Source of the DNA: Schmidtea polychroa
Lineage: Eukaryota
Reading direction: 5' to 3'
NCBI GenBank assembly: GCA_044892525.1
Contig: CM097885.1
Span: 18,044,001-18,108,000 of the forward strand
DNA: 64,000 bases
Part shown: piece by piece, positions 533 through 60,925 of the stretch
How positions within the stretch are numbered: position 1 is the stretch's first letter
How the letters are laid out: each line of letters begins with the position of its first letter
Translations under genes and position numbers: made by a program
The notes under the pieces: generated by a model
What the model was told of the DNA's origin: nothing
What the model saw: the letters and a program-made list of their open reading frames with translations, nothing else
Databases searched by the model: none

Positions 533-2458
533 ATGGCAAATGATAATGCTGTTATGCCTCTCAATAGAGAGATGATTGATTTCGCAAGTTGCCAGAAATT
601 ACCCGTCAATCAATATGGAGGAGACCCTGTTGAATTTGCAGATTTCATGGGAGATTATTATATGTACGCCTCAGCATACGGATGGACACAAGCCATTATG
701 GTTCAGAGATTCCCACTCTATCTGAAAGGTGCGGCAAGAGAAGCCTGGCAGCAAGTCGACAAACGAAATGTTGGCAATGATTGGACAAAATTGAAGGATG
801 CAATGGCACTGAAACTGGTTGGTGGAGATATCAAAAGAATCATGCGACAGAAATTTTATAATCGAGTTCAAGGTCCAGATGAATCGGTCAGTGAGTTTGC
901 TTATCATCTGACCACTTTAGCAGATAAAGCCTTTGAAGTTAAACCAGACCAAGCAGATATGGCCAAGCAGGTTAAAGAGCCATTAGAAGATCAGTTTATA
1001 ACCGGAGTCCACTCCGAAATCAAAAAAGCCCTATGTTATGTGGATTTTTCCAATTTTGATGAGCTCGTGAAGAAAGCCATGAAGATAGAGCTGAATTTAA
1101 AAAGTGCAAAAAGATCAGATGCTTTTGGAGTTAATGTGGAGAGACGTGAGCGATCAATTACGCCTGTGAGAGCACCATGGGATGAAAAGAAAATAAATCA
1201 GATCAGTAGTCCAATTTTGAGACCAAATAATAGATTTCAAGCCAGTAGATCAGCCATGAACGTACAATCAAATGGACAGGTAAATAATCCTCAATGCGAA
1301 CATTGCAAAAAGTCTGGACACTACTCAAATCAATGTTGGTTCAAATATGGGAAAAATCCCAGCCCTAACAAGAGATTCACAGAAAACAAGCGGATCAGCA
1401 GTGATGTCGAATGCTATCGATGCGGAAAGAAAGGGCATATTAGCAGAAACTGTTTTACCAGATCAAGGTCATCGTCAACGTCACCTTCACCACAAAGGGA
1501 CAAAGTGAATACAAATGGACAGATCCAATGTCATTCGTGCAAGGGATACGGCCACATGGCGCGATCATGCCCAAGGAACTCAGAAAGATTCAGCAGACCT
1601 ATCTTAAAGAAATCAATCAGATTCCAAGAAGATATGCCAAACACCAGTAACATGACATATGCTCAGAGAGAGGAATTTCAAGACAAAATGGAAAAGGAAT
1701 TTCGAGAAATGCGACAGAAGCTAAACAAACTAGTGGCGAAATTTGAATCAGATGAGGAAACTGAATCTCATATGATAATTGGAACCGTGTCAGAAGGTGA
1801 GGGAAAACCTGCCACGAAAGTGCGAAATATCGCTTCAGATGAGAATCCAACTGCACTGTTAGCCCGAGTTGAAAAATGGCTTGAGAAAATGGAAACTGAC
1901 AACTCCCAGTTGAAACGATGGATCGCAGAACTCAGTGTGATGTCACTAACCCAAAGCGAACTAAAGAGAGCCATAAATTTATGTGCAAAGTTATTCAAAG
2001 GAAACAGAGACGATGAGATACTTAAAGAAATGCAAAGGTTTGGCAAGGCTTTACGGTCAACAAGGGATTTAGCTGATATCATAGTGGAAACGACGGGACT
2101 TGATAATGTGAAGTGCCAATTCCGTTTAAACGCCTACGGACAAATCAGAGAGTTAAAGGAGCGAATACTGCGTCAATACAGTGGATGGCAAGTGCAATTA
2201 AAATTCGAAAATCGATGTCTGGAAGACGAAGAGTACTTAGTAGATTGCGGTCTGATACCAGGCTGGAAAAATAAAGTAAATGTTATTAATGCTGTTAATA
2301 CTTTGAATTCAGACAGACAAAATTGGGAAAAGATTCTAGCAGATTTACAAGATACCCTGTATGCAGGGAATAGAGATAAAATTAATGCGAGTATCGACTT
2401 CATAATGAGCATCGAAATGGATCGAGACATGAAAGAAGGGTTGTTTGAATGCACCTAA
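533..2458 (+). CDS. gag: Gag (capsid-like region, 3 CCHC zinc knuckles, coiled coil) with a C-terminal ubiquitin-like domain and the start of a Bcl-2-like domain
   Basis: YLKGAAREAW and RVQGPDESVSEFAYHL capsid motifs; CEHCKKSGHYSNQC, CYRCGKKGHISRNC, CHSCKGYGHMARSC; UBL-like IRELKERI..QLKFENRCLEDEEYLVDCGL; first ATG at 533. Confidence 0.9.
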   Translation: MANDNAVMPLNREMIDFASCQKLPVNQYGGDPVEFADFMGDYYMYASAYGWTQAIMVQRFPLYLKGAAREAWQQVDKRNVGNDWTKLKDAMALKLVGGDIKRIMRQKFYNRVQGPDESVSEFAYHLTTLADKAFEVKPDQADMAKQVKEPLEDQFITGVHSEIKKALCYVDFSNFDELVKKAMKIELNLKSAKRSDAFGVNVERRERSITPVRAPWDEKKINQISSPILRPNNRFQASRSAMNVQSNGQVNNPQCEHCKKSGHYSNQCWFKYGKNPSPNKRFTENKRISSDVECYRCGKKGHISRNCFTRSRSSSTSPSPQRDKVNTNGQIQCHSCKGYGHMARSCPRNSERFSRPILKKSIRFQEDMPNTSNMTYAQREEFQDKMEKEFREMRQKLNKLVAKFESDEETESHMIIGTVSEGEGKPATKVRNIASDENPTALLARVEKWLEKMETDNSQLKRWIAELSVMSLTQSELKRAINLCAKLFKGNRDDEILKEMQRFGKALRSTRDLADIIVETTGLDNVKCQFRLNAYGQIRELKERILRQYSGWQVQLKFENRCLEDEEYLVDCGLIPGWKNKVNVINAVNTLNSDRQNWEKILADLQDTLYAGNRDKINASIDFIMSIEMDRDMKEGLFECT

Positions 2459-5274
2459 CACGAACTGAGTTAGATCGAGATGTAATATTGACAGCGTTAG
2501 CCTATATAATATTGGAGATTGGTATTTATGGTTGTCTGGAAAATGACAGTTCAAAATCATTGATAAAGAAAGCTACGGAAATGACGAATAAATATTTGGC
2601 TAGGTGGATCGCAAACAATGGCGGATGGGAAAATTTGATACAAAAGGCTGAGAGCCCAAAAACCGAGACAGTGAGGAAAAAGGGAAAACTCGCATTTCCA
2701 TGGTTGATGATTTCTGTTATTATGTTATTGGGAATAATAAACACGACGAATTCCTTGGTGGCATACGACTGCTCCCAAACCGAAATGGGAAGAGTATATT
2801 CGTTGGTAAACGTAGCAGAGTGTTCGGATGCATATCCAGTAAAATTTAAAGTGACAAATCCAGTAAAATATTATGTATATCAAGAATCGGGATTTCGACG
2901 AGCAAAGGTGAGAGAGTGTACAGTGAAACGAACTACTTTTGTATTTTATTGTGGAAAATGGAGTCACTCATCGATGGTGAAAATGCAATCGATACCTAGA
3001 CCGATAGAAATAATTCCAGAGAATTGTTTGGTAGCCTTTGAAACAGGACAGTTGAAAATCAATGCAGATCTCAAACTACAAGCAAAGCTTAACCACAAAA
3101 TCCGTGAGACTGTAACCGTGCGAGGGATAATAAAGTCGAATGGTGATTGCCAAGGCGAGCCATACAAAGTAGACGATGCTATAATGGACAAAGCCGTGGT
3201 TGTGGAAGAGTACATGTCAGAATTAAGAGAATTTGATGGATCATTTGATGATGATACTGGTAAACTACAAACACATCCATTCTGCAACATGAAACAATCT
3301 AGCTGTCAGACAGGAGAATCAATCTTGGTGTACGATGTCGATACCAAAAAGTGCAATTTAGTGCAATTGAAGTCAATGAGTTTTAAAGAAATAACGGGAG
3401 AACAGATCAGGGAAAAGCCTGAGAAAATAAGAATGGATCCAGCAACGAGTACAACAACAAGAATCACACCTCTACGGATGAAAGATACTCCAACAGTGTT
3501 AATGTCAACCTCGGAGGAAGATGGGATGCGATTCCTGAGAAAAGAAACTAAAACAAAGTGTGGACAAAGTGTCTATGAGACAAATTATAAAGGTATATAT
3601 GTATCTCAGAAGATGATTACAGAGGCCCAAACAAACATACATGCCGGAGATATTAAGTTGACAAATTACTTTAATAACAAAATAGATTATTTATTTCACT
3701 TTGGTCAAAATACTGTTGAAAATGTGTACCGAGAAGTTATTATAAATGATTGCAATCTCAACAAAGAAATACTCCGAAATCGGATGGCAATGGCTATAAC
3801 CAATCCTAATTTGGTAGCACCAATGTTAATTGCAGAAAATGGAGTGTTCGCCAGAATTTTCGGTGAAGCACTATATAGCTATAAATGTAAAGCGGTACCA
3901 GTTAAACTGTCAAAGTATGACCAATGCACCAACGAGTTACCAGTGAATTTAAATGGAAAGTTGCGATTTATGGAGCCTGTAACACGAATCTTACTGGAAG
4001 AGGACGCGAAACCGAAAGTATTACAGTGTAATAGATTGTTAGCACCATTATACAGACTAACACCAGAATCTTGGATTGCATTACCAGATCATCGAGAAGT
4101 AAAGACACCGGAAAACTTAGAATTGACAGAATTACAATATCTGGTAAATTTTACGTCGTTAGAAAAATTGTCGCAAAGTGGAATTTACTCGAACGAAGAC
4201 ATTGAGGAAGCTCGCAGAAACTTGTTATTTCCATCAAAGAAAGAAAGAGTAATAATGGAAATGGTAGATACAATTCTCCCAAGCGGAAGTGGGAAGGTAA
4301 ATTATGAGTATTTGTTAACTCCAGATCATTACAAGAAAGCGACGTATAATACAATGAAAAAGATCTGGGGAAAGTTTATGTTCATTGGACAAGCATGTGC
4401 CGGATTGATTGGAATTTATGTAATATGTGTTGTAATCAAAGTAATAATATCGCAGGTCCTATCAACACACAGATTATATGCGATCACAGGTTGGTCGTGG
4501 AAACTAGTAATTGGTTGCATACCATTATTGGCTAGATTCTTCATTACTCATCATCAATATCAGGAGTTGGAGATACTCAAGGCTCGAATATTAAAGAAGA
4601 AAAAGGTGAGCTACGCGAGTACAACCCCTTCAAGGGACGAGAACAATGACAATGACAACGAGGGTGATAGTGCACCGTTATATGTTGACAATCAAGAACT
4701 AAGTGGAATGAATAAAGAAGCGTTAAGAACCTATCAAATCTTAAAAGAGCCACTGTTGAATGCGAGTAGCGTAGACACGTTTACAAAACTGTGTATACCA
4801 AAATCATTTATGCAACCAGCACCAGTGTATCCAGTTGATCGATTACGAGAGATGAAACCAGTGGAAAATATCGCATTACAATGTGAAGGAATGGTAGGAG
4901 AGAGAATCGAGCCTTCTAGCGCAGAGATCGAGAGAAAAAATATGTTAGGCTTACCATGCAACTACTCAATGATGACATTAACAAAAAGAGGAAAGCAACC
5001 CCGAATATTTATACAAATGAACAAACATAAAGTGGAAGCTTTAGTCGATTCGGGATCTAGTCACACAATAGTATCGGAAAATGTATTAAACGCGAAGGAA
5101 AACATGCGAATGAAGCCTACCGACGAAATAGTGAGGTCATTATCAAAAAATGAATTAAACATAATTGGACAACTTAACGTCATATTCCATATTGGAGATC
5201 GAATAATAGCGCACGATGCGCTCATAATGAAGGGAAGTCCAGTACGATGTCTGATCGGCATGGATATATTATAG
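2449..5274 (+). CDS. Bcl-2-like C-terminal half + TM/signal + envelope glycoprotein (chuvirus G / class III-like) + TM + aspartic protease
   Basis: BH2-like WIANNGGWENL (2605-2637); hydrophobic stretch 2689-2739 followed by LVAYDCS; Cys-rich ectodomain of ~540 aa; TM ~4375-4455 then LYAITGWSWKL; ALVDSGSSHTIVS and CLIGMDIL protease motifs. Confidence 0.85.
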   Translation: MHLTRTELDRDVILTALAYIILEIGIYGCLENDSSKSLIKKATEMTNKYLARWIANNGGWENLIQKAESPKTETVRKKGKLAFPWLMISVIMLLGIINTTNSLVAYDCSQTEMGRVYSLVNVAECSDAYPVKFKVTNPVKYYVYQESGFRRAKVRECTVKRTTFVFYCGKWSHSSMVKMQSIPRPIEIIPENCLVAFETGQLKINADLKLQAKLNHKIRETVTVRGIIKSNGDCQGEPYKVDDAIMDKAVVVEEYMSELREFDGSFDDDTGKLQTHPFCNMKQSSCQTGESILVYDVDTKKCNLVQLKSMSFKEITGEQIREKPEKIRMDPATSTTTRITPLRMKDTPTVLMSTSEEDGMRFLRKETKTKCGQSVYETNYKGIYVSQKMITEAQTNIHAGDIKLTNYFNNKIDYLFHFGQNTVENVYREVIINDCNLNKEILRNRMAMAITNPNLVAPMLIAENGVFARIFGEALYSYKCKAVPVKLSKYDQCTNELPVNLNGKLRFMEPVTRILLEEDAKPKVLQCNRLLAPLYRLTPESWIALPDHREVKTPENLELTELQYLVNFTSLEKLSQSGIYSNEDIEEARRNLLFPSKKERVIMEMVDTILPSGSGKVNYEYLLTPDHYKKATYNTMKKIWGKFMFIGQACAGLIGIYVICVVIKVIISQVLSTHRLYAITGWSWKLVIGCIPLLARFFITHHQYQELEILKARILKKKKVSYASTTPSRDENNDNDNEGDSAPLYVDNQELSGMNKEALRTYQILKEPLLNASSVDTFTKLCIPKSFMQPAPVYPVDRLREMKPVENIALQCEGMVGERIEPSSAEIERKNMLGLPCNYSMMTLTKRGKQPRIFIQMNKHKVEALVDSGSSHTIVSENVLNAKENMRMKPTDEIVRSLSKNELNIIGQLNVIFHIGDRIIAHDALIMKGSPVRCLIGMDIL

Positions 5275-8200
5275 CAGCTGGACGGAGTCTCACTTGATTT
5301 AAAGACAGGTAATTTGATAGCAGGAGAAACAGGAGAAATAATTCACAGGGCAGGTGAAGTGTTTGTGAATCAGACATTGACAATACCACCACAATCGGAG
5401 ATGGTATATTGTGCAAATACCATGAGTGTGGATAATGGTGATTTTATATTCGAACCAAATCAAACGCTAGTCGAAAAATATGATTTACCGATATGTGACG
5501 AAGTTGTCAAAGTGGAAAATCAGATAGTACCAGTCCATATAACGAATAGCAGCAAAAAACCGGTTCAGCTACACCCAAAAACAAAATTGGGAAAATTATC
5601 AAAAATGTCTATTGAAACAAATTGTAAAATACCAAGAAACGTCAAGGTGTATAAGGAGCCTGAAGTGGTAAGCAATGATTTAAATGAGATGCAGAAAAAG
5701 GAATTCACAAAACTGTTGAGGAAATACCGAGATATCTTTGCCAAACACGAATATGATTTGGGTTTAACCAATGTAATTGAGCATGAAATACCGTTATTAG
5801 ACGAAACTCCAATAAAAATAAAGCCATACAGAATCCCCTACGTTCATCAAGATGAAAGCGATAGACAGATTACAGCAATGAAGGAATTTGGAATAATTCG
5901 AGATAGCGCGTCACCATTCTCCTCATCAATAGTGATAGTTAAGAAAAAAGATGGAGACTTACGATTTTGCGTAGATTATCGGAAGCTAAATCAAGTTACA
6001 AGGAAAGACACTTATCCAATTCCGGTACCCCAAGAAATGTTTGATCAAATGGGAGAGGCACGATATTTCACAGTTATTGATTTAAACAAAGGGTACAATC
6101 AATTTAGAGTAAAAGAGGAAGATAGAGGAAAGACGGCGTTCTCGGATGGCAAAGGACTGTATGAGTTCAATGTGTTACCATTTGGAATAACAGGAGCCCC
6201 AGCTACATTCCAACGAGGAATGAATTATGTGTTACGAGGAATTCGACATGCATTGGTATATATCGACGATATAATAATATTTTCAAATGATTTTGAAGAA
6301 CATCTGAAGGATGTAGAAACTGTATTTAAACGGCTCAAAAGTGCAAAATTAAAAATCAAACCATCGAAATGTGAATGGGGCAAAGCAGAAGTGATTTATG
6401 TAGGACATATAATATCACGGCGAGGGTTACAAACTAATCCAGATAACATCAAAAAAGTGGAAGAGTACCCAGTACCAAAAGATGCCGATGAGGTTAGACA
6501 ATTTTTAGGTTTGGCGAGCTATTACAGAAAATTTATAAAAGATTTCTCTCATATCGCACAACCATTGAATACGTTACTAAAGAAAAACAATAAATTTATT
6601 TGGGGACAAATGCAACAAAACGCTTTCAATACATTAAAAGAGAAATTAGTAACAACTCCTATATTAAGATGTCCAGATTTTACAAAACAATTTATCTTGA
6701 TGACGGATGCAAGCAACGTTGCATTGGGTGCGGTATTGGGACAAAAATTTGAAGGTGAAAAGGACCATGTAATAGCATACGCAAGCAGATCATTGAGGCC
6801 TCACGAGAAAAACTACTCAACGATTGAAAAGGAAACGTTAGCGTTAGTGTATGGAATTACTACTTTTAGACAATATTTATTGGGCAGAAAATTTACTGTT
6901 TATACAGATCATAATCCATTACAGTGGTTAATGAAACACAGAGATTCAGCCAGTAAGTTAATACGATGGTCAATTGCCCTCCAAGAATACGACTTTGAGA
7001 TTAAATACCGGACAGGTAAAGCTAACGCGAATGCAGATGCAATGTCGAGAATCCCAGAAAATAATAGTGAAGGGACACCTGAAAAAGTGGAAGGCACTAT
7101 ATTCGCAGCAATCAAAGCTGTTAATGATATGTCTGAACTTCAAAATGATCAGGAAAACGATAGTGAATTAAAACAATTTATGGAACAAGCGGTCAAAATA
7201 AGAAAAGAACAAGACTGGAAACGACTTACAGATGCAAACAGCAAATATGTAATTCATAATGGAATACTTAAATGTTGGAAAAATGGGGAAGCATTAATTA
7301 TTATACCAGCCAAGCACAGAGATGCATTACTGATGCAGTATCATGATGGAGCGTTGGGAGGTCATTTGTCAACGCGCAAGACGCTATCAAGATTAAAATT
7401 GAAATACTTTTGGCCGACAATGGAACAAGACGTGAAAAATTGGAGTAACAGTTGCAAAGTATGCATCACCCGCAGAAATACTGGTAAAAAGATTAAAGTA
7501 CCATTAAAACCGATGCCAGTACCTGCAGCACCAATGGAGATGACGGCAATGGATATTCTGGGACCATTACCGGAAACAACAAAAGGAAACAAATACATTG
7601 TTGTTTTTTGTGACTACTTTACCAAATGGCCAGAAGCATACGCTATTCCAAACCAAAAAGCAGATACGATTGCTAGAATATTTGTGGAAAACATAATATT
7701 TCGCTATGGTACTCCAAAGAAATTGTTAACTGATCAAGGAAAGAACTTTCAAAGCGAGATGTTTAAATCAATCACAGACTTATTTGGAATTTGGAAATTG
7801 AATACGTCACCATATCATCCACAAACTGATGGATTGGTGGAACGATTTAATGGGACACTGATAAATATGATCTCATCATATGTGAATCGAAAACAGAAAG
7901 ATTGGGACGACTTCATAAAGCCGTGTCTGTTTGCCTACAGAAATGCAGTAAATCAAAGTACAGGAGAGACCCCTTTTTACTTGATGTATTTAAGGAAAAA
8001 TAATATGCCGATTGATCTCAAATTCCAACCACCAATTTCACAATATATGGAGATACCCGATTATAAAGCAGGTTTGACAATAAAGCACAACCAAGAGAAA
8101 TATAAAGAATCATACGATAAAAAAGCACATGCGCATGGCATAAAGATTGGAGATCTAGTATATCTGAACAGACCGGAACCTCTCAAAGGTTTATCGCCTA

Positions 8201-9081
8201 AATTGCAAAGACCATTTAAAGGACCCTACAAAGTGTGCGACACCACCGAAACCAATTTGAAGTTATTACCATTCAGGAGTAAAAAGGCTAACCCGATGAT
8301 TGTGCATGCAAATCGATGTAAACTAGTGCCAGAGGAAGATGAATCTAGATACCCCTTAAGATCCAAGCAGAATAAAGTAACGGGTCAAACAAAATTGAAA
8401 CAGAAATTCACGAAAAATCCAACACCAGTCAGCTACATCAATAAGATATTATATGTAGCAATAATGCTGATGTTAGTAACAGTTGCGAGCGGCAAAAAGA
8501 TTGATTTACCATATGCGGTAAACAAAATCCGAGGAATGGAGAAAATACATATATATTCCACTCTAACAAATATAGTATGGAGCTGTAAATGCGAGATCGC
8601 AGACCAAATAGAAATTATTAATTTACTAGCCAATACGGCACCAGTGGTAGAACTGAATTATGATAAAGATATAGTTGCGGTACGAAAGTTAAAGCCAAAT
8701 TACAAATACCAATGGCTGTTGAGACAGAACATGTCAAAGTGGTACACGCAAATTCCGATAGAAGTGCACACAAAAGAGATGCGAAACTTGATCGAGATAG
8801 AACCAGAGATAAACGGAATCAATATATATTGGAAGCCAGTGGACTTGGTGAAAGTGCGACTCACATTTCAAGGGTTAAATGTCGACACCCTTAACTCGCG
8901 AAAATCATTTATCCGCTACGAGAAATTGAAAATGAATCAAAATTATTCAGTTAATGCAAACTACTACGAGAACATATGCCTCGAAAATGGAACGGTAGTG
9001 AGAAACCAATGGTCACGATTTAAGAGTGAGACCCAGTCTATCTATCTCAGAGACGAGTCAAATCGTATAACCCTTATATAG
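5275..9081 (+). CDS. pol: Pol (RT, RNase H, integrase with GPY/F) fused to a signal peptide and FN3-like ectodomain; in frame with the upstream ORF across one TAG
   Basis: LRFCVDYRKLN, LPFG, YIDD (6259-6270), TDAS, HHCC zinc finger, D-D-E (MDIL, TDQG, VERFN), PFKGPY; hydrophobic ILYVAIMLMLVTVASG after the integrase. Confidence 0.95.
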   Translation, partial: QLDGVSLDLKTGNLIAGETGEIIHRAGEVFVNQTLTIPPQSEMVYCANTMSVDNGDFIFEPNQTLVEKYDLPICDEVVKVENQIVPVHITNSSKKPVQLHPKTKLGKLSKMSIETNCKIPRNVKVYKEPEVVSNDLNEMQKKEFTKLLRKYRDIFAKHEYDLGLTNVIEHEIPLLDETPIKIKPYRIPYVHQDESDRQITAMKEFGIIRDSASPFSSSIVIVKKKDGDLRFCVDYRKLNQVTRKDTYPIPVPQEMFDQMGEARYFTVIDLNKGYNQFRVKEEDRGKTAFSDGKGLYEFNVLPFGITGAPATFQRGMNYVLRGIRHALVYIDDIIIFSNDFEEHLKDVETVFKRLKSAKLKIKPSKCEWGKAEVIYVGHIISRRGLQTNPDNIKKVEEYPVPKDADEVRQFLGLASYYRKFIKDFSHIAQPLNTLLKKNNKFIWGQMQQNAFNTLKEKLVTTPILRCPDFTKQFILMTDASNVALGAVLGQKFEGEKDHVIAYASRSLRPHEKNYSTIEKETLALVYGITTFRQYLLGRKFTVYTDHNPLQWLMKHRDSASKLIRWSIALQEYDFEIKYRTGKANANADAMSRIPENNSEGTPEKVEGTIFAAIKAVNDMSELQNDQENDSELKQFMEQAVKIRKEQDWKRLTDANSKYVIHNGILKCWKNGEALIIIPAKHRDALLMQYHDGALGGHLSTRKTLSRLKLKYFWPTMEQDVKNWSNSCKVCITRRNTGKKIKVPLKPMPVPAAPMEMTAMDILGPLPETTKGNKYIVVFCDYFTKWPEAYAIPNQKADTIARIFVENIIFRYGTPKKLLTDQGKNFQSEMFKSITDLFGIWKLNTSPYHPQTDGLVERFNGTLINMISSYVNRKQKDWDDFIKPCLFAYRNAVNQSTGETPFYLMYLRKNNMPIDLKFQPPISQYMEIPDYKAGLTIKHNQEKYKESYDKKAHAHGIKIGDLVYLNRPEPLKGLSPKLQRPFKGPYKVCDTTETNLKLLPFRSKKANPMIVHANRCKLVPEEDESRYPLRSKQNKVTGQTKLKQKFTKNPTPVSYINKILYVAIMLMLVTVASGKKIDLPYAVNKIRGMEKIHIYSTLTNIVWSCKCEIADQIEIINLLANTAPVVELNYDKDIVAVRKLKPNYKYQWLLRQNMSKWYTQIPIEVHTKEMRNLIEIEPEINGINIYWKPVDLVKVRLTFQGLNVDTLNSRKSFIRYEKLKMNQNYSVNANYYENICLENGTVVRNQWSRFKSETQSIYLRDESNRITLI

Positions 9082-9099
9082 AAACGATATATAGTATAA

Positions 9100-9570
9100 A
9101 CGATATATAGAAAATCAGGAAATGATGAAAGAGTTGTTATTATCTACAAACAAAAAACCCTGACTATATTAGATGCCGGTAATCATTTTTTTACACTTTA
9201 CACTTCTGATTTAGAGACGGCATGGGAATTAACAGTTAAATATCAGCGATGGATAACCGATCCAGGCAGATGGCAAACAGTTTTCGTGGAAGTCAAGACA
9301 ATCAATGAATCGAAACGAAAATCATATACAACCACATCACCTTTCCAATTACCGACCCAAGAGACGACAAAACCTAACTCAAACAAACTAATGATGATAA
9401 ATTCGGATTTGACAGTCAACTATTGTGAATATCTCATTTACATTTTAATAACAGGTTTTCTCATCTTATCAATAACATTCATAATCATCACCATCTTGAT
9501 ATGTGTAAAAGAGAGACAACTAACTATCCTTCAACCACCATCATATTCATATTATGAGACAAGACTATAA
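9100..9570 (+). pseudogene. In-frame continuation of pol: third FN3-like repeat, S/T stalk, TM, cytoplasmic PPSY and C-terminal ETRL
   Basis: Same frame as pol, open 9100-9570; separated only by two stops inside a local AAACGATATATAG duplication (9079-9110). Confidence 0.7.
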
Positions 9571-9752
9571 ATTGTGATCTGCATGAATAGTGTATAAAAA
9601 AAAATATATATTACATTTATATTAACAATGTGCATGTTTTATAAGTACCATAGGATGAACTGTGTAATTTGTTTGAGATTCGAAGCGAGGTGTTGATGCT
9701 TTGCGAATAAAGAGTGATACAAAAAAAAATAACTATCATTTAATTTCAGAGA

Positions 9753-9998
9753 ATGCAAGAAGCCTCGGAGATGACATGCAAAGAGTGTAAAACAAGTACG
9801 CAAGAACTAAAACAAAAGTTTCGTAGCATGCAGGGCAGAATAACAGATTTGGAGGAAGAAAACTTCCGTCTGAAAAGGCGGTTGGACCGTTTGGAAATCT
9901 TATTGTTTCAACACGAAGCCGATTTCGCGATGTTTCGAATGAGAGTAGAAGAAATGGAGGAATCGGAAGATGATGGTGAGATAAATCAATTAGACTAA
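9753..9998 (+). CDS. Small coiled-coil (leucine-zipper-like) accessory protein with acidic tail
   Basis: Heptad pattern ITDLEEENFRLKRRLDRLE, CxxC, acceptor-like TTTCAG just before the ATG, AATAAA right after the stop. Confidence 0.55.
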   Translation: MQEASEMTCKECKTSTQELKQKFRSMQGRITDLEEENFRLKRRLDRLEILLFQHEADFAMFRMRVEEMEESEDDGEINQLD

Positions 9999-10451
9999 AA
10001 AAATAAATTATTTAAACGGACCCTGTTGGTGTTTTTTCGTCCTCGAGAAAAAAAAATAATAGTTAAATAATTATAAGTAAATTAACAAATAATCAAATGA
10101 ATAAACAAATTGATATAAATAAATAAGTAAAAAAGTGATAAATTAAATGAATGAATAATAGATAAAAATGAACAAAGTTAAACGAGCAAATAGAATAACT
10201 CAAATAAATGTTGCAAATAATGAAATGACTACCTTAAATGAGCATTAGAAATAAATAATATGGCTGATTAGTAATTAATGAATTAGCATAACTATATAGC
10301 AATGGGTAACCCACTGGGCGAGAGAACAAAATTTTAAATAAGTAAGGAATAATTTAGTAGTAACAAAGACTAATCGCGAAGAGGGACACAATTACCCCAC
10401 CCTTTCTAGCATAAATTAAAAACAAAGGTATGCTGAACATTTATTCAAAGT

Positions 10452-11190
10452 TTATTCGTCATCAGAGTCCAACAGAACGGGACTTTGGATGCCACAGTCC
10501 CATTCCCTGCGTACATTGCAAGGCGGGCGTCGTTCAAACCTACTGCCTGTATCCACACAGGCAAAGGTACGTTTCAATCCCTTTCGACGCGGTGGTAAAG
10601 GGACCCTGAAAAAGAAATTAAAAAAACCTGTTAGTATGGCAGTTAAATAACCATTGCATAACATCGAGATGTTCAAACTTAGGTTCTGGCACAGCCTAAA
10701 ATAGTAAGGGTTGAAAAGAAAAAACGAAATAAATACTATGTAAAACTCCGTACCATGGCGCCCTCGACAAATAATTAGTGCAGGGAAGTAATTGATTTTA
10801 AGAATTACGTAATAAATTAATAAGTATAAATACGGCTAAAATTGTCAGAAAAATACGAGTAGCTGTAATTAGAGGTTTGCTTTTAGTATAAATACAAAAT
10901 CAAAAATCAAAAATATATGACCCAAAACATGAGTGTAGGTAGTTGCATAAACAAATTAACGAATTAAAATTAAAAAGTAAATAAGTTAATTTAATAAGCA
11001 TCAATAAGTTAATTTAATATGCAACACGAGCACTTGCAATCACCGGGGTTTGGCTACCCTGGACAGCGATTGCAAGTGTTCGGTTACTATGAGGGTAGTT
11101 GAGGACAGCATGGTAAAAAGAATCACAAATACAAAAAATAACAAAAGATAGTTAATCACTTACGTCCATAGTAATTGAGGGATGGCGTTA
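10452..11190 (-). CDS. Predicted spliced antisense accessory gene (~67 aa) in the retroelement 3' region
   Basis: TATATAA 11290-11296; GT-AG introns 11191-11242, 10696-11163 (or 10696-10753) and 10606-10651 give an open frame; two AATAAA at and after the stop. Confidence 0.5.
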
Positions 11191-11297
11191 CTAAAATTCA
11201 AAGAAAAATATGAAAAAGAAAAATAAAATATAAAATGCTTACTTCAAGATTGGCAAGACAAAACTAACGAAAAGTGGTAAAGCAGAAACTTATATAG

Positions 11298-11435
11298 AAC
11301 GCTTATCAGTACAGACTACGTTGACAAACTACAGAGTAATTAATTAGAAAGCTTATCAGCACGGCTACGTAAGAAACCACAGGGTAATTAATTATAGAGC
11401 CTATCGGTATCGGCTACGTCAAAAACCGCAGGATA
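11298..11435. repeat. Three ~49 bp imperfect tandem repeats (GCTTATCAG..CTACGT)
   Basis: Direct inspection; GATA-like and ACGT cores upstream of the antisense TATA box. Confidence 0.75.
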
Positions 11436-12629
11436 AGAAAAAATTCATTCGGAATATTAATGTTCATCGCAGATACCTTATCAGGCTGAGTAAACAGTCG
11501 GTCGGTGCGGGGGAGATTAACTTTTTACCATGCTGCGAGCGAAATAAACCAACAAGTTATTAATAACAAAAAAAAAATTATTTTTAAATCATAATATTAA
11601 TAATAATAGTAATAATGATGAAAGGAAAAAAAAAATAATAAAATAAATAAATTACCTTGCAACTGAGAATAAATTAGGCATATATTCTGCACATAAAAAT
11701 CGATTTCCGCAATCAATAAAATAAAAAAAATTTTATCAGTGGTTTATCAAAATAAAAGCACCAGAAAATTCGAGTCACAATGGCTTCCAAAATTCAATAT
11801 GCGCTCCCTAGAAATATTTAAAACCAACCAATTCTGTTATTGGGTTGAGCTAATTTTTGTTCCCGGGTCGATAATAAAATTTGCGGTTGTGTCTGATAAG
11901 TAGAATGACTGACCAATCAGATTGAAATACATTCACCATTGGGATGAATTTTGAAGAAAATTGACACACACATACACGCAAGTGCACTCATTTATAGATA
12001 CACACAAAGAACCCCGATTAATGTACAAGTACCGTGAACTACTTAATCGTAAAGACACACACACAGACAGACACACAAGCATGATTCCAACAAAATATAA
12101 TTTAATTTAAAAATTTTTTTGAAACAACTAAATAACTTTTTATGATTGCAATTTTTTTATGAATTAATTATTCAAATCAAACTTTATTTTCATCTCAGAG
12201 AATTAAAATTTTTATGAGAATTTACGTGGATAATAAAATTAAAACAACTTTTGAATGTTAAATGAATATGTAGACCACATAATTTAGCTAATTGAATGTC
12301 TTTAATTTGGCCATTTTGCTTCAATTTCCACTTTTGTATAAAGAAATTATATTAAATCAATTTCACCTTTAATACTTTTTCAGTGTTCTGTACCTCAGAA
12401 TACTCAAATGAAATACTGTACGACACCATTTTTGAGTAATTCACATTTTGCGATTAAATAGTTTCATTTATTTTTAATTACCTCCTAATGAAGATTTTTA
12501 AGTAAAATAATTTTCACTATGTTTTCAATTTTTTTTAAAATAATAATCTAATTAAAATATTTAATATGAATTAATCATAAAACTTAAATTTTTGAAGAAG
12601 TTTATGTTTCACGTAGATCATCAATTCTT

Positions 12630-12777
12630 AACATTCCTCAATCATTGCTTCTAACTGCATAGCATTCTGGAACCATATATTCATATCTCTAATAAATTCA
12701 TCATTTATTCTGAGAGAGGTTTTAACTACAATAACCTTACCAGACTGTCTTTGGTCTACTCGACCATTTGAAAGATC
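12630..12777 (-). pseudogene. Isolated exon fragment resembling a PCI-domain C-terminus (CSN7-like)
   Basis: After a TTTCAG acceptor: DLSNGRVDQRQSGKVIVVKTSLRINDEFIRDMNIWFQNAMQLEAMIEE. Confidence 0.35.
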
Positions 12778-12874
12778 CTGAAAATGTCTAATATCAGATA
12801 ATATCTTTAACTGTGTTTCGGATCAGAATTAAATAACTGTATCCTGAAAAAAAAAAGGATCAGATAATATCCTA

Positions 12875-12964
12875 AAAATCAATGCCAACAGTAGATACGA
12901 AAGCTGACGTAAAACTATCACCAGCACAACGAAATAAAAATGAAGTTTTCCCAACTGAATTATT
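12875..12964 (-). pseudogene. Rab3-like GTPase exon fragment (P-loop and switch I)
   Basis: [30 protein letters not shown] closely matches Rab3 [26 protein letters not shown]. Confidence 0.85.
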
Positions 12965-13707
12965 TTTAGCATACATTGTTGAACGTCTGGAATAAAATTG
13001 GTGCGTGGTCCGCAAACGGTTAAATTGATTTCTTTCTTTTCTTCACAATGACTTGGTGAAACAGCTAAAAATTTACATCGATATAAATATTATATAACCA
13101 AATTCGGGTGCCATTACAAAATTACCTAAAACAATCGGTCGCCGATAGTTGACTAACAAAATATATGAGGCATAATCAAGTTAAATATTATTTAATAGTA
13201 TATATTACATAAAAGTTTTTATAATCTTGTAAATGAAACCAAAAAAAAAATATTTCTTGCCAAATATTGATTCGATTGATAACATTGATCACATTTGGAT
13301 ATTCAGTCATATTATTTTTACACAAAATATATAAACCTAAATTCAAGTTGCAAAATTAAAATTGAAATCATGTTTCACTACCATTCAAAATACTATCTTG
13401 ATCAATGAACTCTTGGTAATATAAATAATATAAGCCTTGTTCGGTTCGGAACGAAATCAATTTTTCAACATCACTGATAAACTAATTACCAAAAACGGAA
13501 CACGATTTTCCAATAATTAAAATTTTAAACATAATCAGAGTTTTGATCTTGCTTTCTTGATTTTGGAATCGTAATAATCTGATCAGAACTAAATAACTGT
13601 ACTGTCAATCTGAGGGAAATTTCAAATACATATGGGAAATGGCTCAACGAATCACACGAAGAGGATTTATTCGTGCTCACAATTTTTCATTGGACTATAT
13701 TTGCAAA

Positions 13708-14929
13708 ATGATTTGTGGTAAATCTGAATTATGTATATTTGATAGACCATCGCCCCAGGCTGTAATAAAATTTGGGGCTTTTGAGGAAGTTTTTCCTATG
13801 AATTCAATTACCGATAGTAGAAATGATATAGAGTTTTATATTAATGGTTCGCAAACTGAATATTTAGATTTGAACGATACTTTATTGACTGTTCAGATCA
13901 AGGTTGTAGATAAAGATAGAAAAGTTTTGGATGCCAATGCAGATGTAATACCGAACAATTTCCTGTTTCATACTCTTTTTAAATGCAGTGTTGGGATTTA
14001 ATAATATCAAGATTGAGGGTGGAAATAATACATTCATTCACAAGGCATTAATAGAAACTATTTTAAATTACAATTCCGATACTAAAAATACATGCCTTAC
14101 TCCTATGGGTTATGCAGCAGCAGATGATGAAAGAAAAAAGTGGGTTAAAGGCTCAAAGGTTTTCACCATGTGCTCATCATTACAACTCGATTTTATGGAT
14201 CAACCGAAATATTTACTACCGGGAGTTAATGTACATATTAGACTGAAAAGGTCTGATTCTGTATTATCTCTTACTAGTGCAAATGGTGCACCAATATGTC
14301 AATTAGTTGATGCAAAATTATTGGTGAGAAGAGTTAGAGTAGACCCCTTAGTATTAGCTGGTCATCAATTGGGTCTTAATTCAAAACATGCAATTTATCC
14401 ATTAAAAACAAAGGAAATTGTACAATTCGCTATTGCTAAAGGTGCTTCATCATTCTATAAAGAACAAATATTTGGTGACAGAAGAATGCCTAATTTTATT
14501 CTGATAACATTTCAAAGTGAAGCACAATATAATGGATCATATATTGCGTCCAGCTCAATTTTCAAAAACTTTGGTGTTACATCATTGACTTTGTCGAAAA
14601 ATACTGATTATAGAGAAACATATATTCAAGATTTCGAAAATGACAATTACTGTGCGACATATATGCAGAGTATTGTTAGAAATCTGGGTTATTTAGATAA
14701 AAATTTGAATTGTGGAATAACTCTAGAAGAATTTAAAAGCAAATACCCATTTTTTACATTTGTTTCAGCCCCTGATTTTGATTTAAATCAGAGTCAATTA
14801 CCTCAAAATGGAAATTTACGACTGGATATAAAGTTTGCAAAAGCTATTACTGAACCAGTACATGTTACAATATATGGAGTATTTGAAAATGAAATTCAAA
14901 TTACTGCAAATAGAACTGTGTTGGTATAA
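13708..14929 (+). pseudogene. Maverick/Polinton (adintovirus-like) major capsid protein, frameshifted at ~13982
   Basis: KSELCIF N-terminus, IEFYING..EYLDLNDTLL, QPKYLLPGVNVHIRLKR, GNLRLDIKFAK, VFENEIQI. Confidence 0.85.
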
Positions 14930-16400: not shown

Positions 16401-17356
16401 TATTTATTTATTTTTATATATTTATTTTTATATATTTATTTTTTAAAAACCTTTTAAATTTCTTAAATACTTTTAAACATTTTCTTAAAAACTTATTTAT
16501 AAAAACTTATTATGAAAATGAAGAAAATATTATGATGAAATTGAAAATGTTATGATGACTAAAATGATGAAAATATTATGAGGAAGAAATGATGAAAATA
16601 TTATGATGAAGAAAATGATGAAAATATTATGAAAATGTTTAAAAAGTTGCGATGTACTTTTTTTAATAAACTATGATTGTATATTTATTATCTATATTAT
16701 TTCGATTAGTTTTTAAAAATCAAAATTTTAAAAGTGAAAAAAACCTGACAGTGACAGATTAATAACGTGGGTAAGAATAAAAAAATTAATTCGCTCGCCG
16801 TGAACAAACAACTTAAACTTCTGGTCACTGTAAGCAAAAATAAATCTTGACTATCATTATTTTAGAAAAATCAAATAAAAGTTAAAACTTCAAAAACTGC
16901 ACTTTTTTCTTGAAAATTTGGAAAATATTGTGAAAACGGAAAGACGATAGATTTACATCATCCGGGTCATAGTTAACCAGGAGACGGGAGACTCTCGGTA
17001 AAAACGGGAGAGTTGGCAAGCCTAATATTAATAGTAAAATTGAAATTTCATAAAATTGAAAAGCTCATTAATTGAATTTTAATTAGGGTTCAAATTTTCC
17101 AAAAAAATATTCTTTTATATCAAAAAATGTACACAACATTTAAATTTCACTGACACGACTTTTTATTTAGTTTGAAATTCAAAATTCATTAATTTCTCAA
17201 TTTAAAAATTTTTATGTTCAATATTTTAAAATGTTTGAACTATTTTGACGTAAGTTGTTTTACGAACTCATTAAAATACTATATAACTTAGAAGTTGATC
17301 TACAATTTCAAAATTTTGTATATCAAGGTCACGATTTTTATTGATTAATAAGAAAA

Positions 17357-19114
17357 ATGTCAATTATTTATCAATCGAAAATGCATCAAATGTGCCATAT
17401 TGATCAAGAATTAAAAGATACAATAAAAAAAATTTCTTTTCCATTAATATTTGGTACAATTGGTTATGCGGGATATTGTTACTATCGTAGCAATCGTAAC
17501 AATGCTCAGATTAAAGAAAAGCAAAAGGAATTAAGTCATAAGAAAAGTGAACTGTTGAAAAAACTAAAAGATCTTGGAACTCCAATAAATAATATGGATA
17601 AGATTACGAATTTGAAATTGAGTGATTTACATGAAGCTATTGAAAAAGGAGAATTTACATCACTTGATGTTCTTCAAGCATACCAAGCAAAAGCTCTAAT
17701 AATGGATAAGGAATATAATTTTATAACTGATTTGAATCCCAATGCAGAATTAGATATTTCTCGTGAATCAGTCGACAAGAAAATCATTAACATTCCAATA
17801 AGTGTGAAAGAATGTTTTGTGTTGAAACATTGTGATTGCACTAATGGAATGCTAGATCAAGTTTCTAATCCAGCAAAGGAAGATGAGATTATAATTCAAA
17901 TTTTGAAGTTACACGGATTTATTCCATTTCTTAAAACCAATCTCAGTCAAGGTTGTCTTGCTATAGAATCTTCAAATCCTATATATGGGGAAACGTTAAA
18001 TCCATTCAATAAAGGTCGAACAAGTGGAGGCAGTTCAGGCGGAGAGGGAGCTATATTAGGATGTGGTGCATCGTTGATAGGATTAGGAAGTGACAGTGGA
18101 GGAAGTATTCGTATTCCTTCTCATTATTGTGGGATATATGGATTCAAACCCAGTTCACCAAGGATTAGTAAACGCGATTCCAAATGTATGTTCCCATATC
18201 CAAATTTCGTTTGTGAATCCTATGGGCCAATGGCGCGTCATATTGATGATTTAGTTGCTGTTTATAAAATGATGACAAACAGAGATTCGTTTCAATTGGA
18301 TCCATATTGCCCTCCTATATGCTTTAATACTAATGTTTTCGAAGACAAACGGCCATTAAAAATAGGTTATTATATTCATCTAGGGGGCAGTCAGGTGACT
18401 CCAGTCCCAGCTGTAGAACGGGCGGTTTTGATGGCAAAAAAGGCATTAGAATCAGCTGGACACAAATTGGTGGAATTCCAAATACCAGAGGTTGATTCTG
18501 TAGTATTGGAATTATTTTTGAGAAGTCTATTAAATGACGGTGGTGAAGGTTTCAAAAAAGAATGTTTGAAAAATAATCCCGTTGATCACTGCATTAGAAA
18601 TGTTGTTACAATATTAAAAATACCAAATTTGCTTAAAAAATGTTTAAGTTTTCTACTTTATCCATTCGATAAGAGCTCGAGTATTTTATTGAATGCAACC
18701 ATGGCGATACCTTCCGTTTATAAACTATGGCAATTTAAAGATAGGGTTATTGATTATCGCGAAAAGGTTTTAGTCCACTGGCAAAATGAGAAATTGGATG
18801 GTTTAATTTGTCCGACATTGCCAATATGTGCTCCACCATTACACAAATCTCAAGAGCTGGAAAGTGTTACTACATATACATCAATCTACAATTTACTGGA
18901 TTATCCAGCGGGATCTACACCTGTTACCACCGTAAATCAAAATGACATTGATAGCCTCCTGGCAAATTACCCAAGAGATAGTAAAATCCACCGTAAGATT
19001 CTGGAATATCAAAAGGATTCTATTGGTATGCCCATAGGAGTACAAAGCGTCTCAATGATGTGGCGAGAGGAGGTATGCCTTAGAATTATGAAAGACATCG
19101 CAACAAATATCTAA
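17357..19114 (+). CDS. FAAH: Fatty acid amide hydrolase-like amidase, intronless
   Basis: ISVKEC (catalytic Lys), GGSSGGEGA, GSDSGGSIRIPS, GMPIGVQ, N-terminal hydrophobic segment. Confidence 0.92.
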   Translation: MSIIYQSKMHQMCHIDQELKDTIKKISFPLIFGTIGYAGYCYYRSNRNNAQIKEKQKELSHKKSELLKKLKDLGTPINNMDKITNLKLSDLHEAIEKGEFTSLDVLQAYQAKALIMDKEYNFITDLNPNAELDISRESVDKKIINIPISVKECFVLKHCDCTNGMLDQVSNPAKEDEIIIQILKLHGFIPFLKTNLSQGCLAIESSNPIYGETLNPFNKGRTSGGSSGGEGAILGCGASLIGLGSDSGGSIRIPSHYCGIYGFKPSSPRISKRDSKCMFPYPNFVCESYGPMARHIDDLVAVYKMMTNRDSFQLDPYCPPICFNTNVFEDKRPLKIGYYIHLGGSQVTPVPAVERAVLMAKKALESAGHKLVEFQIPEVDSVVLELFLRSLLNDGGEGFKKECLKNNPVDHCIRNVVTILKIPNLLKKCLSFLLYPFDKSSSILLNATMAIPSVYKLWQFKDRVIDYREKVLVHWQNEKLDGLICPTLPICAPPLHKSQELESVTTYTSIYNLLDYPAGSTPVTTVNQNDIDSLLANYPRDSKIHRKILEYQKDSIGMPIGVQSVSMMWREEVCLRIMKDIATNI

Positions 19115-21828: not shown

Positions 21829-21860
21829 TATAAAGTGATGATTTCTTGGTAGCAGCATTT

Positions 21861-24537
21861 ATTATTTAAAACAATAAAGTGATAATTTAAGCCTTTTGCT
21901 GCGAATAATGTATTAAATGAAAAAATTAGTCGTTGTCAATCTCCTGGAATTTAGCAATCTCCTTCCCGAAAATACATTTCTATCTTTCTTTTATTTCTTT
22001 TTTCTTAATTCTCATTGGGTATAAATATAATATAATGATATACTTTCTTTTTTTTTAAATTTATTATATTTTTTATATATTTTCAGTTATTCTCAAGGTC
22101 AATGACAACAGATCAAATTGATGATTTCATTGATTTCTTCTTTAGTGTTGATTTTTGGCCGTCTGTTTATGATGAGAATTGCTTCTTTGAATCTGACATT
22201 TTTCTTTTGGATGTTTCCATTAACTATGATTTCGATTGAAATATTTTTCTTCCTCTCTGTTGGTTGACATTGTTGCAGATGTCTGTTTATCGAGGATGTT
22301 CACCAGGATCTAGATGTTCTTTAACTCTTTGGTGCAAGGTCCTGAGTGTACTTCCAATGTTGATTTCATTGCATACATTGCACGTGATGCAATAGACGAT
22401 GTTTTTTCTAAAGCACATATCTTTTGGTGTCTGGGAGCTTTTCATTGTGCAATTGTTTTCTCTATTTATGTTACCTGCCAGAGCCCTTCTCGATGTCCAA
22501 GATTTATGTGCTATCCGAATTGGAAGACCGGTACGTTTAAGTTCTTTCAGGATCTTGAAATTTTATTTATTTATTAGAAAATTTAGAATTATTAGTGATG
22601 ATGAAGCAATTCATGATGATGATGATTTTTCAGCTATTCATGATGATGATGATGTTCTAGCAATTAATGAAGCAATTAATGATGATGATACAGAATCTTG
22701 CATTATAGAGAAACATACAAGGATGACAGCCGCATGTCACCAAACACCATCGAAATGAAGATCAACAAAGTATGAAAAGTCATAGCTTTGGAAATGAAGC
22801 TCAACAACAGAATAACCAGCACTTTCGTCACAAAATTTCTGATCTTCCCAACTTCTACCACCTAATTAAAACTCACAAAGAGGCTCCTGGTATCAGAATT
22901 AGACCTATAGTGTCCAACACAAATGGACCAACAACTAAAACAAGTTGGCTCCTTTCAAAGATCTTGAAACTTTTATTGGACACGATACCACCCCATCTTC
23001 AAAGCAGCGACTGCCTCGTGACAAGATTAAATAATAACATAACTTCTCATAGAGAATTCAAATACTCATTCAGTCTTGATGCCGTATCACTATACACATC
23101 TATCGAACCAAAAGAGGCTATTCAATGTTTAGAAAATAAATTAAGAGAAAACAATTTGTTAATAAAGGAAATAAATATGGAGAATATCACCAAACTGCTT
23201 ACTGTTATCCTCAAGAACACCTATTTTACCTTTGAGCAAAATATCTATAAACAAGTTAAAGGTCTGTCTTTGGGTTCTAGCATATCATGACTGCTAGCCA
23301 TCATCTTTATGGATAACCTCAAACTACAGACACGGATACTATACAACCCATCGGTTTCTATGCAAGATATGTTGATGATATCTTCATCACGACTAAAAGC
23401 AGAAAAGAAGCGGAGGAAATATTTCATACATTCAATACGGTTCACCGAGATATTAAGTTCGAAATCGAATATCCGGAATAAGATAGATCCCTCAATTTAT
23501 TGGATTTTAGAAATAAAATAGAAGCAAATACTCCAACATACGGGTACTACAGAAAACCAGCTCGCAAAAAAATATTTATGCACCAAAGATCAGCGCTTCC
23601 ATACTTACAGAAAGTACATGTCATAAGAAACGAGAAACGAATAATAACCAATAGATGCATTGAAGAAAACGAAAACTTAAAACAACAATCAAATTTCAAT
23701 AAAAACCTACACAGAAACGGACACCAAGGTGAGGCATTGAAAGAATGAATTCTACCCCAAGAAGATCTAGGGAATTAACACAAAAGAATCAGAAATATTT
23801 CTATCTTAATATCCCATTCATCAGTGACATACTCGACTTCAAGATCCTGAAAGAACTTAAACGTACCGGTCTTCCAATTCGGATAGCACATAAATCTTGG
23901 ACATTAGGAAAAGCTCTGGCAAAGAACATAAATAGAGAAAACAATTGCACAATATAAAACTCCCAGACACAGAAAGATATGTGCTTTAGAGAAAACATCG
24001 TCTATTGCATCACGTGCAATGTATGCAATGAAATAAACATTGGAAGTACACTCAGGATCTTGCACCAAAGAGTTAAAGAACATCTAGATCCTGGTGGATC
24101 ATCCTCGACAAACAGACATCTGCAACAATGTCAACCAACAGAGAGGAAGAAAAATATTTCAATCGAAATCATAGTTAATGAAAACATCCAAAAGAAAAAT
24201 GTCAGATTCAAAGAAGCAATTCTCATCATAAACAGACGGCCAAAAATCAACACTAAAGAAGAAATCAATGAAATCATCAATTTGATCTGTTGTCATTGAC
24301 CTTGAGAATAACTGATAATATATAAAAAATATAATAAATTTAAAAAAAAAGAAAGTATATCATTATATTATATTTATACCCAATGAGAATTAAGAAAAAA
24401 GAAATAAAAGAAAGATAGAAATGTATTTTCGGGAAGGAGATTGCTAAATTCCAGGAGATTGACAACGACTAATTTTTTCATTTAATACATTATTCGCAGC
24501 AAAAGGCTTAAATTATCACTTTATTGTTTTAAATAAT
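21861..24537 (+). mobile_element. Degenerate Penelope-like element (RT + GIY-YIG endonuclease) with a ~700 bp inverted pseudo-LTR
   Basis: KTHK..IRPIVS, SLDAVSLYTSI, KGLSLGS, RYVDDIF in a shifted frame, IVYCITC..IGST..RVKEH; 21861-22559 is the reverse complement of 23838-24537. Confidence 0.9.
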
Positions 24538-24680
24538 AATAATAATAATGATAATAATAATAATAATAATGACAATAATAACAACAATAATAACAACAAT
24601 AATAACAACAATAATAATAATTATTATTATTATAACAATAATAATTAAGAATAACAACTTAAAAAATAATAATAACACTC
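24533..24680. repeat. (AAT/AAC)n microsatellite
   Basis: Direct inspection. Confidence 0.9.
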
Positions 24681-28521: not shown

Positions 28522-28725
28522 CCACTTGCCTGGCGCGCGCTCAAAAATGTGTACCATTTCAGACGAGCGCTCACATGTGAGCGCAAACTCATATAGAAAA
28601 AATATTGTCCTTTGAACTCGGAAAATTGAAAAAAAATATTTACGTTATATTTTGATTATATTAATGATTTAAAAAAATAGTTTTTTTTTGACCGAAAACA
28701 TGAAAAAAAATCGCCCGGCAAGTGG
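28522..28725. mobile_element. piggyBac-like MITE
   Basis: TTAA on both sides; TIR CCACTTGCC(T/G)GGCG; internal palindrome GCGCTCACATGTGAGCGC. Confidence 0.8.
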
Positions 28726-29666: not shown

Positions 29667-29825
<159 letters not shown>

Positions 29826-29996
29826 GTAGTATATAATGAGGACTCCAGGAATATAGGTCAATTGAATCATTTATTATTATTATTATTTTTTTTTAAATTA
29901 ACATTTTATTTAATAAATTCCTTCTCCAAAAGTATTTAGAATTCAAAAAATATTGAAAACTAAAAAGGTCGGCAAGGATAAACAATACTATGTCAA

Positions 29997-31420: not shown

Positions 31421-31543
31421 TTTGTGGTAAATCTGAATTATGTATATTTGATAGACCGTCGCCCCAGGCTGTAATAGAATTTGGGGCATTTGAGGAAGTT
31501 TTTCCTATGAATTCAATTACCGATAGTAGAAATGATATAGAGT
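31417..31543 (+). pseudogene. 5' fragment of Polinton major capsid gene truncated at the duplication junction
   Basis: Matches 13708-13834 with 3 substitutions, then switches to Gypsy integrase sequence. Confidence 0.9.

Positions 31544-60796: not shown

Positions 60797-60925
<129 letters not shown>

Follow-up and report, generated by a model that had tools for sequence, protein, structure and literature searches.

A predicted class III fusion glycoprotein within the Gag-Pol polyprotein of a planarian Ty3/Gypsy element

Introduction

How does a viral-type fusion glycoprotein come to lie inside a Gag-Pol gene, and how would it be made from that position? The question is raised by a retroelement at the left end of a 64,000-nt stretch of the genome of the planarian Schmidtea polychroa (GenBank assembly GCA_044892525.1, contig CM097885.1, positions 18,044,001 to 18,108,000; hereafter the window, in whose numbering all positions are given), in which an envelope-like sequence (env) precedes the protease. 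A first-pass annotation of the window had read 2755–4545 as a chuvirus-like class III glycoprotein, captured independently by a Gypsy lineage and lying in a fully open frame at a non-canonical position. Here, we find that env is an internal part of a Gag-Env-Pol polyprotein with no separate gene, and that the element belongs to a family already known and to an old lineage rather than reflecting a new capture. It is a compact example of a class III fusogen inside Gag-Pol, one that is transcribed and has been active recently, in an animal in which RNA interference is available.

Results

The fusion glycoprotein

Positions 2449–5274 form a single open frame (941 aa), which holds every env motif quoted in the first-pass annotation. 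A basic and then hydrophobic stretch (2674–2754) serves as the putative signal and is followed by LVAYDCS from 2755, with further motifs starting at 2944 (FYCG), 3148 (CQG), 3742 (INDCNLNKEILRNRMA), 3862 (GEALYSYKCKAVPV), 3925 (CTNELPV) and 3967 (FMEPVTRIL), by a transmembrane segment (4381–4452) and by LYAITGWSWKL (4474–4506), an instance of the LYxxxGWSWKL pattern. The ectodomain of ~540 aa carries 14 cysteines and one N-glycosylation sequon, and the protease motif (5032–5058) is in the same frame as env, the protease sitting 190 codons past the env transmembrane segment. Signal and transmembrane segment were both seen in rough hydrophobicity scans, which makes a type I membrane topology putative, and env homologues likewise have a hydrophobic stretch ahead of an AYDC-type motif. 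The region divides as follows:

2674–2754, + strand: internal signal peptide of the fusion glycoprotein, from sequence and homologues (cleavage site putative)
2755–4380, + strand: ectodomain of the predicted class III (gB/chuvirus-type) fusion glycoprotein, from Pfam, predicted structure and fold searches
4381–4545, + strand: env transmembrane anchor and conserved juxtamembrane tail, from hydrophobicity scans and alignment conservation

The match of env to the Pfam family PF24664 (Monjiviricetes fusion glycoprotein) is far above chance (318 bits against a cut-off of 27, E 9e-95). An AlphaFold model built on an alignment of 108 sequences reached a mean predicted local distance difference test score (pLDDT) of 90.7 and contains a central helix 48 residues long. 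When this model was compared with the PDB using Foldseek, herpesvirus gB was alone among the matches listed (best E 4.9e-14, TM-score ~0.45, root-mean-square deviation (rmsd) ~13), and against viral models the chu-like virus glycoproteins came top (E 4e-39, TM-score up to 0.74, ~20% identity), followed by qin-, xinmo- and rhabdo-like G. A fold search independent of Foldseek returned gB in its top five rows (Z 10.4, rmsd 7.6, 427 aligned) and, next below, thogotovirus GP, rhabdovirus G and GP64. At the sequence level, the env family profile had gB as its top PDB match, though a weak one (E 0.02), and a PDB search with env as a single sequence gave centrin-like noise only.

Similarity to the known class III fusogens is therefore present, in agreement with the chuvirus/gB-like identity first proposed, and we consider it well supported that 2755–4545 encodes such a glycoprotein, with fusion activity predicted from sequence and model. 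What env has in common with herpesvirus gB, chuvirus G and other Monjiviricetes G is the class III fold, the long central helix and conserved cysteines; it differs from them in sequence (10–22% identity) and in being part of a retroelement polyprotein, from which it has to be cut.

One frame from Gag to a second membrane protein

In other copies of the element, one frame of ~3,330 codons encodes, in order, Gag, a ubiquitin-like segment, a Bcl-2-like domain, a signal, the glycoprotein (G), a transmembrane segment, protease (PR), reverse transcriptase (RT), RNase H (RH), integrase (IN), a second signal, a second ectodomain and a final transmembrane segment. The first-pass annotation had missed that env is in frame with Gag and Pol, as well as the ubiquitin-like and Bcl-2-like domains and the membrane protein after the integrase. 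Of the 19 other loci examined, 15 have an open env stretch; the full 4.9 kb around env is open at 7 of 20 loci (the window copy among the 20), and the 9.4 kb fetched at 5 of 19 loci, corresponding to 4 distinct insertions. Ten of 110 scored matches to the terminal protein lie within frames of 3,333–3,361 codons. Two element loci (L022 and L024) have flanks that are 100% identical over ~8 and 10 kb, a small contig here duplicating a chromosome region.

In the same genome, the env stretch recurs at 99% identity or more in at least 40 copies, the number scored among 987 candidates, and the terminal protein in at least 110 copies (96–100%). A pair of long terminal repeats (LTRs; ~1,060 nt, ends TG...CA) was found in 8 of the 10 copies whose flanks were fetched, and a 4-bp target duplication was clear in five of seven copies, likely in one and uninformative in one. 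A purine run, as expected of a polypurine tract, precedes the 3' LTR, and copy coordinates give an element length of 16.5–17.3 kb. In the RT ranking, the Ty3 Gag-Pol (E 2.8e-112) came well ahead of caulimo- and retroviral RTs. By its LTR ends, target duplication, primer site and PR-RT-RH-IN order, the element is a member of the Ty3/Gypsy group (Metaviridae), and the Gypsy carrier named at the outset is confirmed by this ranking and by Pfam. Because the two LTRs of a pair are 99.2–99.9% alike and come with 4-bp target duplications, the family is young; it is also high-copy and has recently multiplied.

Against this background, the window copy could be laid out in full:

1–274, + strand: 3' end of the 5' LTR (~1,060 nt, TG...CA), which starts ~786 nt before the window; from LTR pairs and termini of other copies
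282–299, + strand: primer-binding site, 18 nt, 7 nt past the LTR, complementary to the 3' end of host tRNA-Trp; tRNA-Trp(CCA) genes with a matching end occur in the same genome
533–1600, + strand: Gag, with Retrotrans_gag (PF03732, E 7.5e-10) and three CCHC knuckles at 1295, 1412 and 1529 (PF00098, E 1.5e-10)
2105–2453, + strand: ubiquitin-like segment of the Gag-Env linker, which is truncated at ~2453 (PF00240 E 3.4e-5, below cut-off, measured in another copy)
2458–2640, + strand: remnant of a Bcl-2-like domain, its last helices with a BH2-like WxxxNGGW (PF00452 E 0.0016, below cut-off; profile; ESM neighbours)
4990–5271, + strand: aspartic protease in frame with env (PF13975, E 3.6e-7), followed by a stop at 5272–5274
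5782–8340, + strand: RT (YIDD at 6259), RNase H and integrase in Ty3/Gypsy order, from Pfam, with Ty3 Gag-Pol as best solved relative
8443–9570, + strand: second type I membrane protein past the integrase (signal 8443–8493, transmembrane segment 9430–9507), in frame with Pol in other copies
9571–13694, + strand: long 3' region of the element, which matches downstream sequence in other copies as far as 13694, where the copy stops without a 3' LTR

The tRNA-Trp pattern has 855 matches in the genome, apparently mostly in tandem arrays such as the one that starts at 55022433 (locus L073, G000:C4; 284-nt period). Right behind the polyprotein gene, 9744–9998 is a coiled-coil-like 84-aa frame with weak Pfam matches only.

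The window copy carries four lesions: at ~2453, where ~0.9 kb is missing and the frame shifts; at the stop 5272–5274; near 8070, with a short in-frame loss; and at ~9079–9099. None of the 19 other loci shares any of the four break contexts. The claim of a fully open env frame thus holds for the env stretch, and the apparent frame start at 2449 is an artefact of the ~0.9-kb deletion private to this copy. Programmed frameshifting at 2449–2458 and read-through at 5272–5274 were considered and rejected, since both features are private to the window copy when compared with the 19 other loci.

Between Gag and env, the ubiquitin-like and Bcl-2-like assignments fall under the curated Pfam cut-offs. 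For the latter, a six-sequence profile matches Bcl-xL (E 2e-4) and the ESM neighbours are BCL2L15/BID (0.91); the BH2-like GGW motif is retained and the BH1 NWGR motif is not. A Bcl-2-like segment also lies ahead of env in four related polyproteins (P0003, P0008, P0011 and P0017) and was not seen in the remaining env homologues scanned. Two or three protease-like domains each occur in the related polyproteins P0003, P0004, P0006, P0010, P0014 and P0019, and in P0006 and P0010 one of these lies past the integrase.

Transcription

None of the indexed data sets found to contain the element was labelled as RNA. We examined two raw RNA runs, both single-cell libraries sampled at ~2 in 100, with a depth of ~10–150. 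The reads are mostly 95–99% alike to the element, and their species label differs from that of the best DNA sources. They cover 30 of 30 bins in both runs, are strand-biased and include stretches absent from the window copy, continuing past 2453 through the part deleted there; the element family or a close counterpart is transcribed. None of nine listed RNA joints has GT..AG ends, although minor splicing would escape these runs. In one run, A-rich loose read ends lie behind 337 and 9729. An AATAAA is present at 9706–9711, and the genome itself has an A9 run at the 9729 site, such that early polyadenylation and internal priming explain the 9729 ends equally well.

Selection and origin

Relative to a sister family in the same genome, the proportion of synonymous differences (pS) is 0.77–0.86, with synonymous sites saturated in all eight regions measured, while amino-acid identity is 90% for RT, 78% for env, 57% for the Bcl-2-like domain and 50% for the tail. 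Saturated synonymous sites alongside retained amino acids point to purifying selection on every part, and the post-integrase tail is the fastest-changing one. Distant polyproteins keep the same part order, with env 29–42% identical.

In a FastTree phylogeny that combined 16 embedded envs with 40 of the 93 stand-alone G-like proteins and with 3 other sequences, all of them found with the window env as query, the 16 embedded envs form one clade (support 1.0) that nests among the stand-alone proteins. Because the sequences are unnamed and were all matched by the env query, the tree speaks for an old shared origin and does not name the donor. A chuvirus donor is not established, given ~20% identity to named viral G and the matches to qin-, xinmo- and rhabdo-like G; an independent capture by a Gypsy lineage, as first suggested, is plausible for the deep lineage only and fails at the level of the family. 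An ancient acquisition of env is also argued for in the accessible text of PMC13524379. Among the related predicted proteins, P0023 and P0031 fuse env pieces with host-like domains (MRP-L47 in P0023) and are probably gene-prediction artefacts.

A second membrane protein after the integrase

The protein past the integrase opens with a second signal and has a beta-rich ectodomain (~270 aa), which leads through a Thr-rich stalk to a strong transmembrane segment and a short tail. The sister family has the same layout, with 46–50% identity over the post-integrase tail. Among five distant polyproteins that reach past the integrase, four (P0006, P0007, P0010 and P0013) end in signal, ectodomain and transmembrane segment; in P0020 the signal is present and the final transmembrane segment is not clear. 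Homology of these five ectodomains to that of the window family was undetectable, a profile finding nothing beyond the transmembrane segment, and the shared feature is therefore the layout.

No homologue was found among stand-alone proteins of 205–655 aa, and a PDB search gave no match. The predicted model reached a pLDDT of 34, and the fold search was uninformative (best Z 5.0). A fibronectin type III (FN3) fold is a lead only: ESM similarity was 0.86–0.88, Pfam fn3 did not match, hhalign gave 25.6% for one of three segments that had been cut after inspection, and a host FN3 profile test (44 host domains) did not outperform its control, with 12–14 of 500 shuffles reaching the score at best and 5 of 500 for the integrase control. 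We found no published account of this protein in the literature covered, with figures, the authors' sequence archive and Repbase outside that coverage, and within the known family it alone looks undescribed.

Relation to known elements

The env position upstream of the protease was read correctly at the outset; its novelty was not, since the gag-env-pol arrangement, and apparently this very family too, is already published. Chary and Hayashi (eLife 2026; PMC13524379) report, in the accessible text, GAG-ENV-POL errantiviruses with a gB-type env from Nematoda, Bryozoa and Platyhelminthes, with nine flatworm elements listed. The window family has the features of this HSV/gB type, namely a Gypsy pol, a gB-type env between gag and pol and multiple copies. 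One listed element, Smed_errantivirus_2, has 215 copies in its supplement row and shares with ours the Ty3/Gypsy affiliation, the env between gag and pol, the flatworm host and the high copy number; over the only segment compared, by eye, the two envs differ at 7 of 251 residues (244 same). In the accessible table, neither an LTR nor a primer site is entered for it, whereas the window family has 1,060-nt LTRs and a tRNA-Trp site, and the accessible text of PMC13524379 contains no mention that we found of Bcl-2-like, ubiquitin-like or post-integrase membrane domains.

A further precedent is planarian Burro, described by Arkhipova and Yushenova (2019; PMC6431247, citing Grohme 2018 and Jurka 2007 for Burro/GYPSM1), which in the accessible text has Ubi/SUMO-like and BCL2-like domains, with an in-frame env placed between gag and pol, and is called the first such case. 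Both have one polyprotein, a Gag with three CCHC knuckles, the Ubi/SUMO-like and BCL2-like domains, here with Pfam scores below the curated cut-offs, an in-frame env before PR, and PR-RT-RH-IN. As far as that text describes it, however, Burro exceeds 30 kb and encodes ~4,900 aa, as against ~17 kb and ~3,330 aa here, its ankyrin/BIR/MATH cargo has no Pfam counterpart in the window family, and a dUTPase-like domain occupies the place of our 5275–5781 segment; by size, frame length and cargo, the window family is not Burro in the strict sense. This 5275–5781 segment, 170 aa between PR and RT, has no Pfam match. A Burro-like element of the same genome carries a PF24664 env that is 37–38% identical to that of the window family (RT 51%), with a Bcl-2-like segment before it and, past the integrase, ankyrin repeats, a signal-like segment, an ectodomain and a transmembrane segment.

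The non-canonical nematode endogenous retroviruses of Sacco et al. (2022), set beside ours solely through their description as cited in PMC13524379, are metaviruses with an RNA-virus glycoprotein before pol, as in the window family, in another host phylum. The accessible parts of PMC12440569 and PMC11410931 hold nothing further on the window element.

Outside the Gypsy group, the window family can be compared with the Anakin elements, BEL/Pao elements with a chuvirus G reportedly described by Dezordi et al. in 2020. The glycoprotein family is the same, but in Anakin the backbone is BEL/Pao and env is 3'-terminal, whereas here the backbone is Gypsy and env lies inside the polyprotein: env precedes PR, RT is Ty3-like, and the window matches include none of the Pfam families that we take to mark BEL.

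Discussion

We consider it likely that this env belongs to an enveloped Ty3/Gypsy retrotransposon of a dugesiid planarian, Smed_errantivirus_2 or a very close counterpart, and that it is made as one membrane-threaded polyprotein. Flavivirus and alphavirus polyproteins offer a comparison for such a design. Unspliced RNA would be translated into a single chain that passes the endoplasmic reticulum (ER) membrane four times, in keeping with the order signal, transmembrane segment, signal, transmembrane segment seen in the hydrophobicity scans. The Gag, ubiquitin-like and Bcl-2-like domains would be made in the cytosol; the internal signal would then send G into the ER, with signal peptidase cleavage leaving the N-terminal part tail-anchored. 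The env transmembrane segment would bring the chain back to the cytosol, so that PR-RT-RH-IN hang from the tail of G, and the second signal and transmembrane segment would thread the final protein, its ectodomain luminal. Once the element protease had released capsid and enzymes, particles could assemble on membranes already bearing their own fusogen, with G mediating their entry by fusion into further cells, the probable targets being stem or germ cells. The fusion of parts would by itself tether the products to membranes and ensure that Env and Pol are packaged, making a spliced env message unneeded.

Several points weigh against this reading. The protein, particle, cleavage and fusion steps are predictions from sequence and models, and the topology comes from rough scans in which the core helix of the Bcl-2-like domain scores hydrophobic too. 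Were that helix to span the membrane, G would end up on the cytosolic side, an outcome disfavoured by the cysteine-rich fold and by the absence of the helix from other homologues. The second signal falls just outside threshold in the sister family and in the Burro-like element, the ectodomain carries a single sequon, and most copies are broken, that of the window among them. A 1:1 ratio of Gag, Env and Pol would be awkward for particle assembly, and the thin single-cell RNA sampling, under another species label, could have let minor splicing escape.

Alternatively, the products of the one-frame genome could be balanced by RNA processing, if splicing or early polyadenylation gave Gag-rich, Env or Pol messages of their own. 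A need for extra Gag is common among single-frame elements, and the A-rich read ends and the AATAAA could be signs of such processing; yet coverage is complete across the bins, the listed joints show no GT..AG, and the A9 run offers internal priming as an equally good account of the 9729 ends. We regard this alternative as unlikely. Spread inside cells, with G retained for cell-cell fusion, or for budding into and fusing back out of internal membranes, and no free infectious particles formed, strikes us as improbable. In its favour, the signal would tether Gag to ER membranes, and the activity of gB-type errantivirus envs is, according to the accessible text of PMC13524379, untested outside Drosophila-type elements. 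However, the full class III fold is retained, and a second, fast-changing surface protein kept in frame across lineages fits contact with the cell exterior.

The strong form of the original proposal, in which this family alone recently captured a chuvirus G gene, appears highly improbable and is already contradicted at the family level. Chu-like virus glycoproteins are the best named structural neighbours, and stand-alone G-like proteins surround the embedded envs in the tree, but identity to named viral proteins is ~20%, compared with 29–78% among the embedded envs of the single clade, and the Burro-like element, with so divergent an RT, carries the same env in the same place.

Returning to the membrane-threaded polyprotein, its post-integrase product may be the attachment partner of the fusogen, its fold and function being putative. 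By analogy with herpesviruses, we tentatively raise the possibility, itself rather doubtful, of a two-protein entry system made from this one polyprotein, in which the gB-like fusogen would be paired with a fast-evolving, possibly FN3-like attachment or trigger protein in the role of gD or gH/gL, and Gag would be held at the membrane by the env signal peptide, acting also as tail anchor of the Bcl-2-like domain. How an env of the gB type could mediate entry by itself is a question that PMC13524379 leaves unanswered, and such a system would resolve it. A partnership of this kind would explain entry by gB-type errantiviruses and would mean that a reverse-transcribing element uses a polyprotein strategy like that of flaviviruses.

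Other features of the window

The window contains tandem segmental duplications that are 99.5–99.9% identical (7947–28287 and 31541–51878; also 62641–64000, 25620–32900 and 56750–64000) and that take in the 3' half of the element. Where the window copy of the element stops, frames start at 13597–14929, with a copy around 37542–38522; we take them to resemble the major capsid protein of Polinton/Maverick elements, and the frame at 13949–14929 gave no useful Pfam, PHROG or PDB match. A duplicated, intron-free amidase frame of 589 aa lies at 17345–19114 and 40932–42701 (PF01425, E 1.5e-85), and a duplicated Ets-domain frame (PF00178) at 26080–27264 and 49670–50854 on the − strand. At 21859–24539 and 45449–48129, ~700-nt inverted arms that are 97% complementary flank a 1.3-kb core, forming what is probably a non-autonomous DNA transposon.

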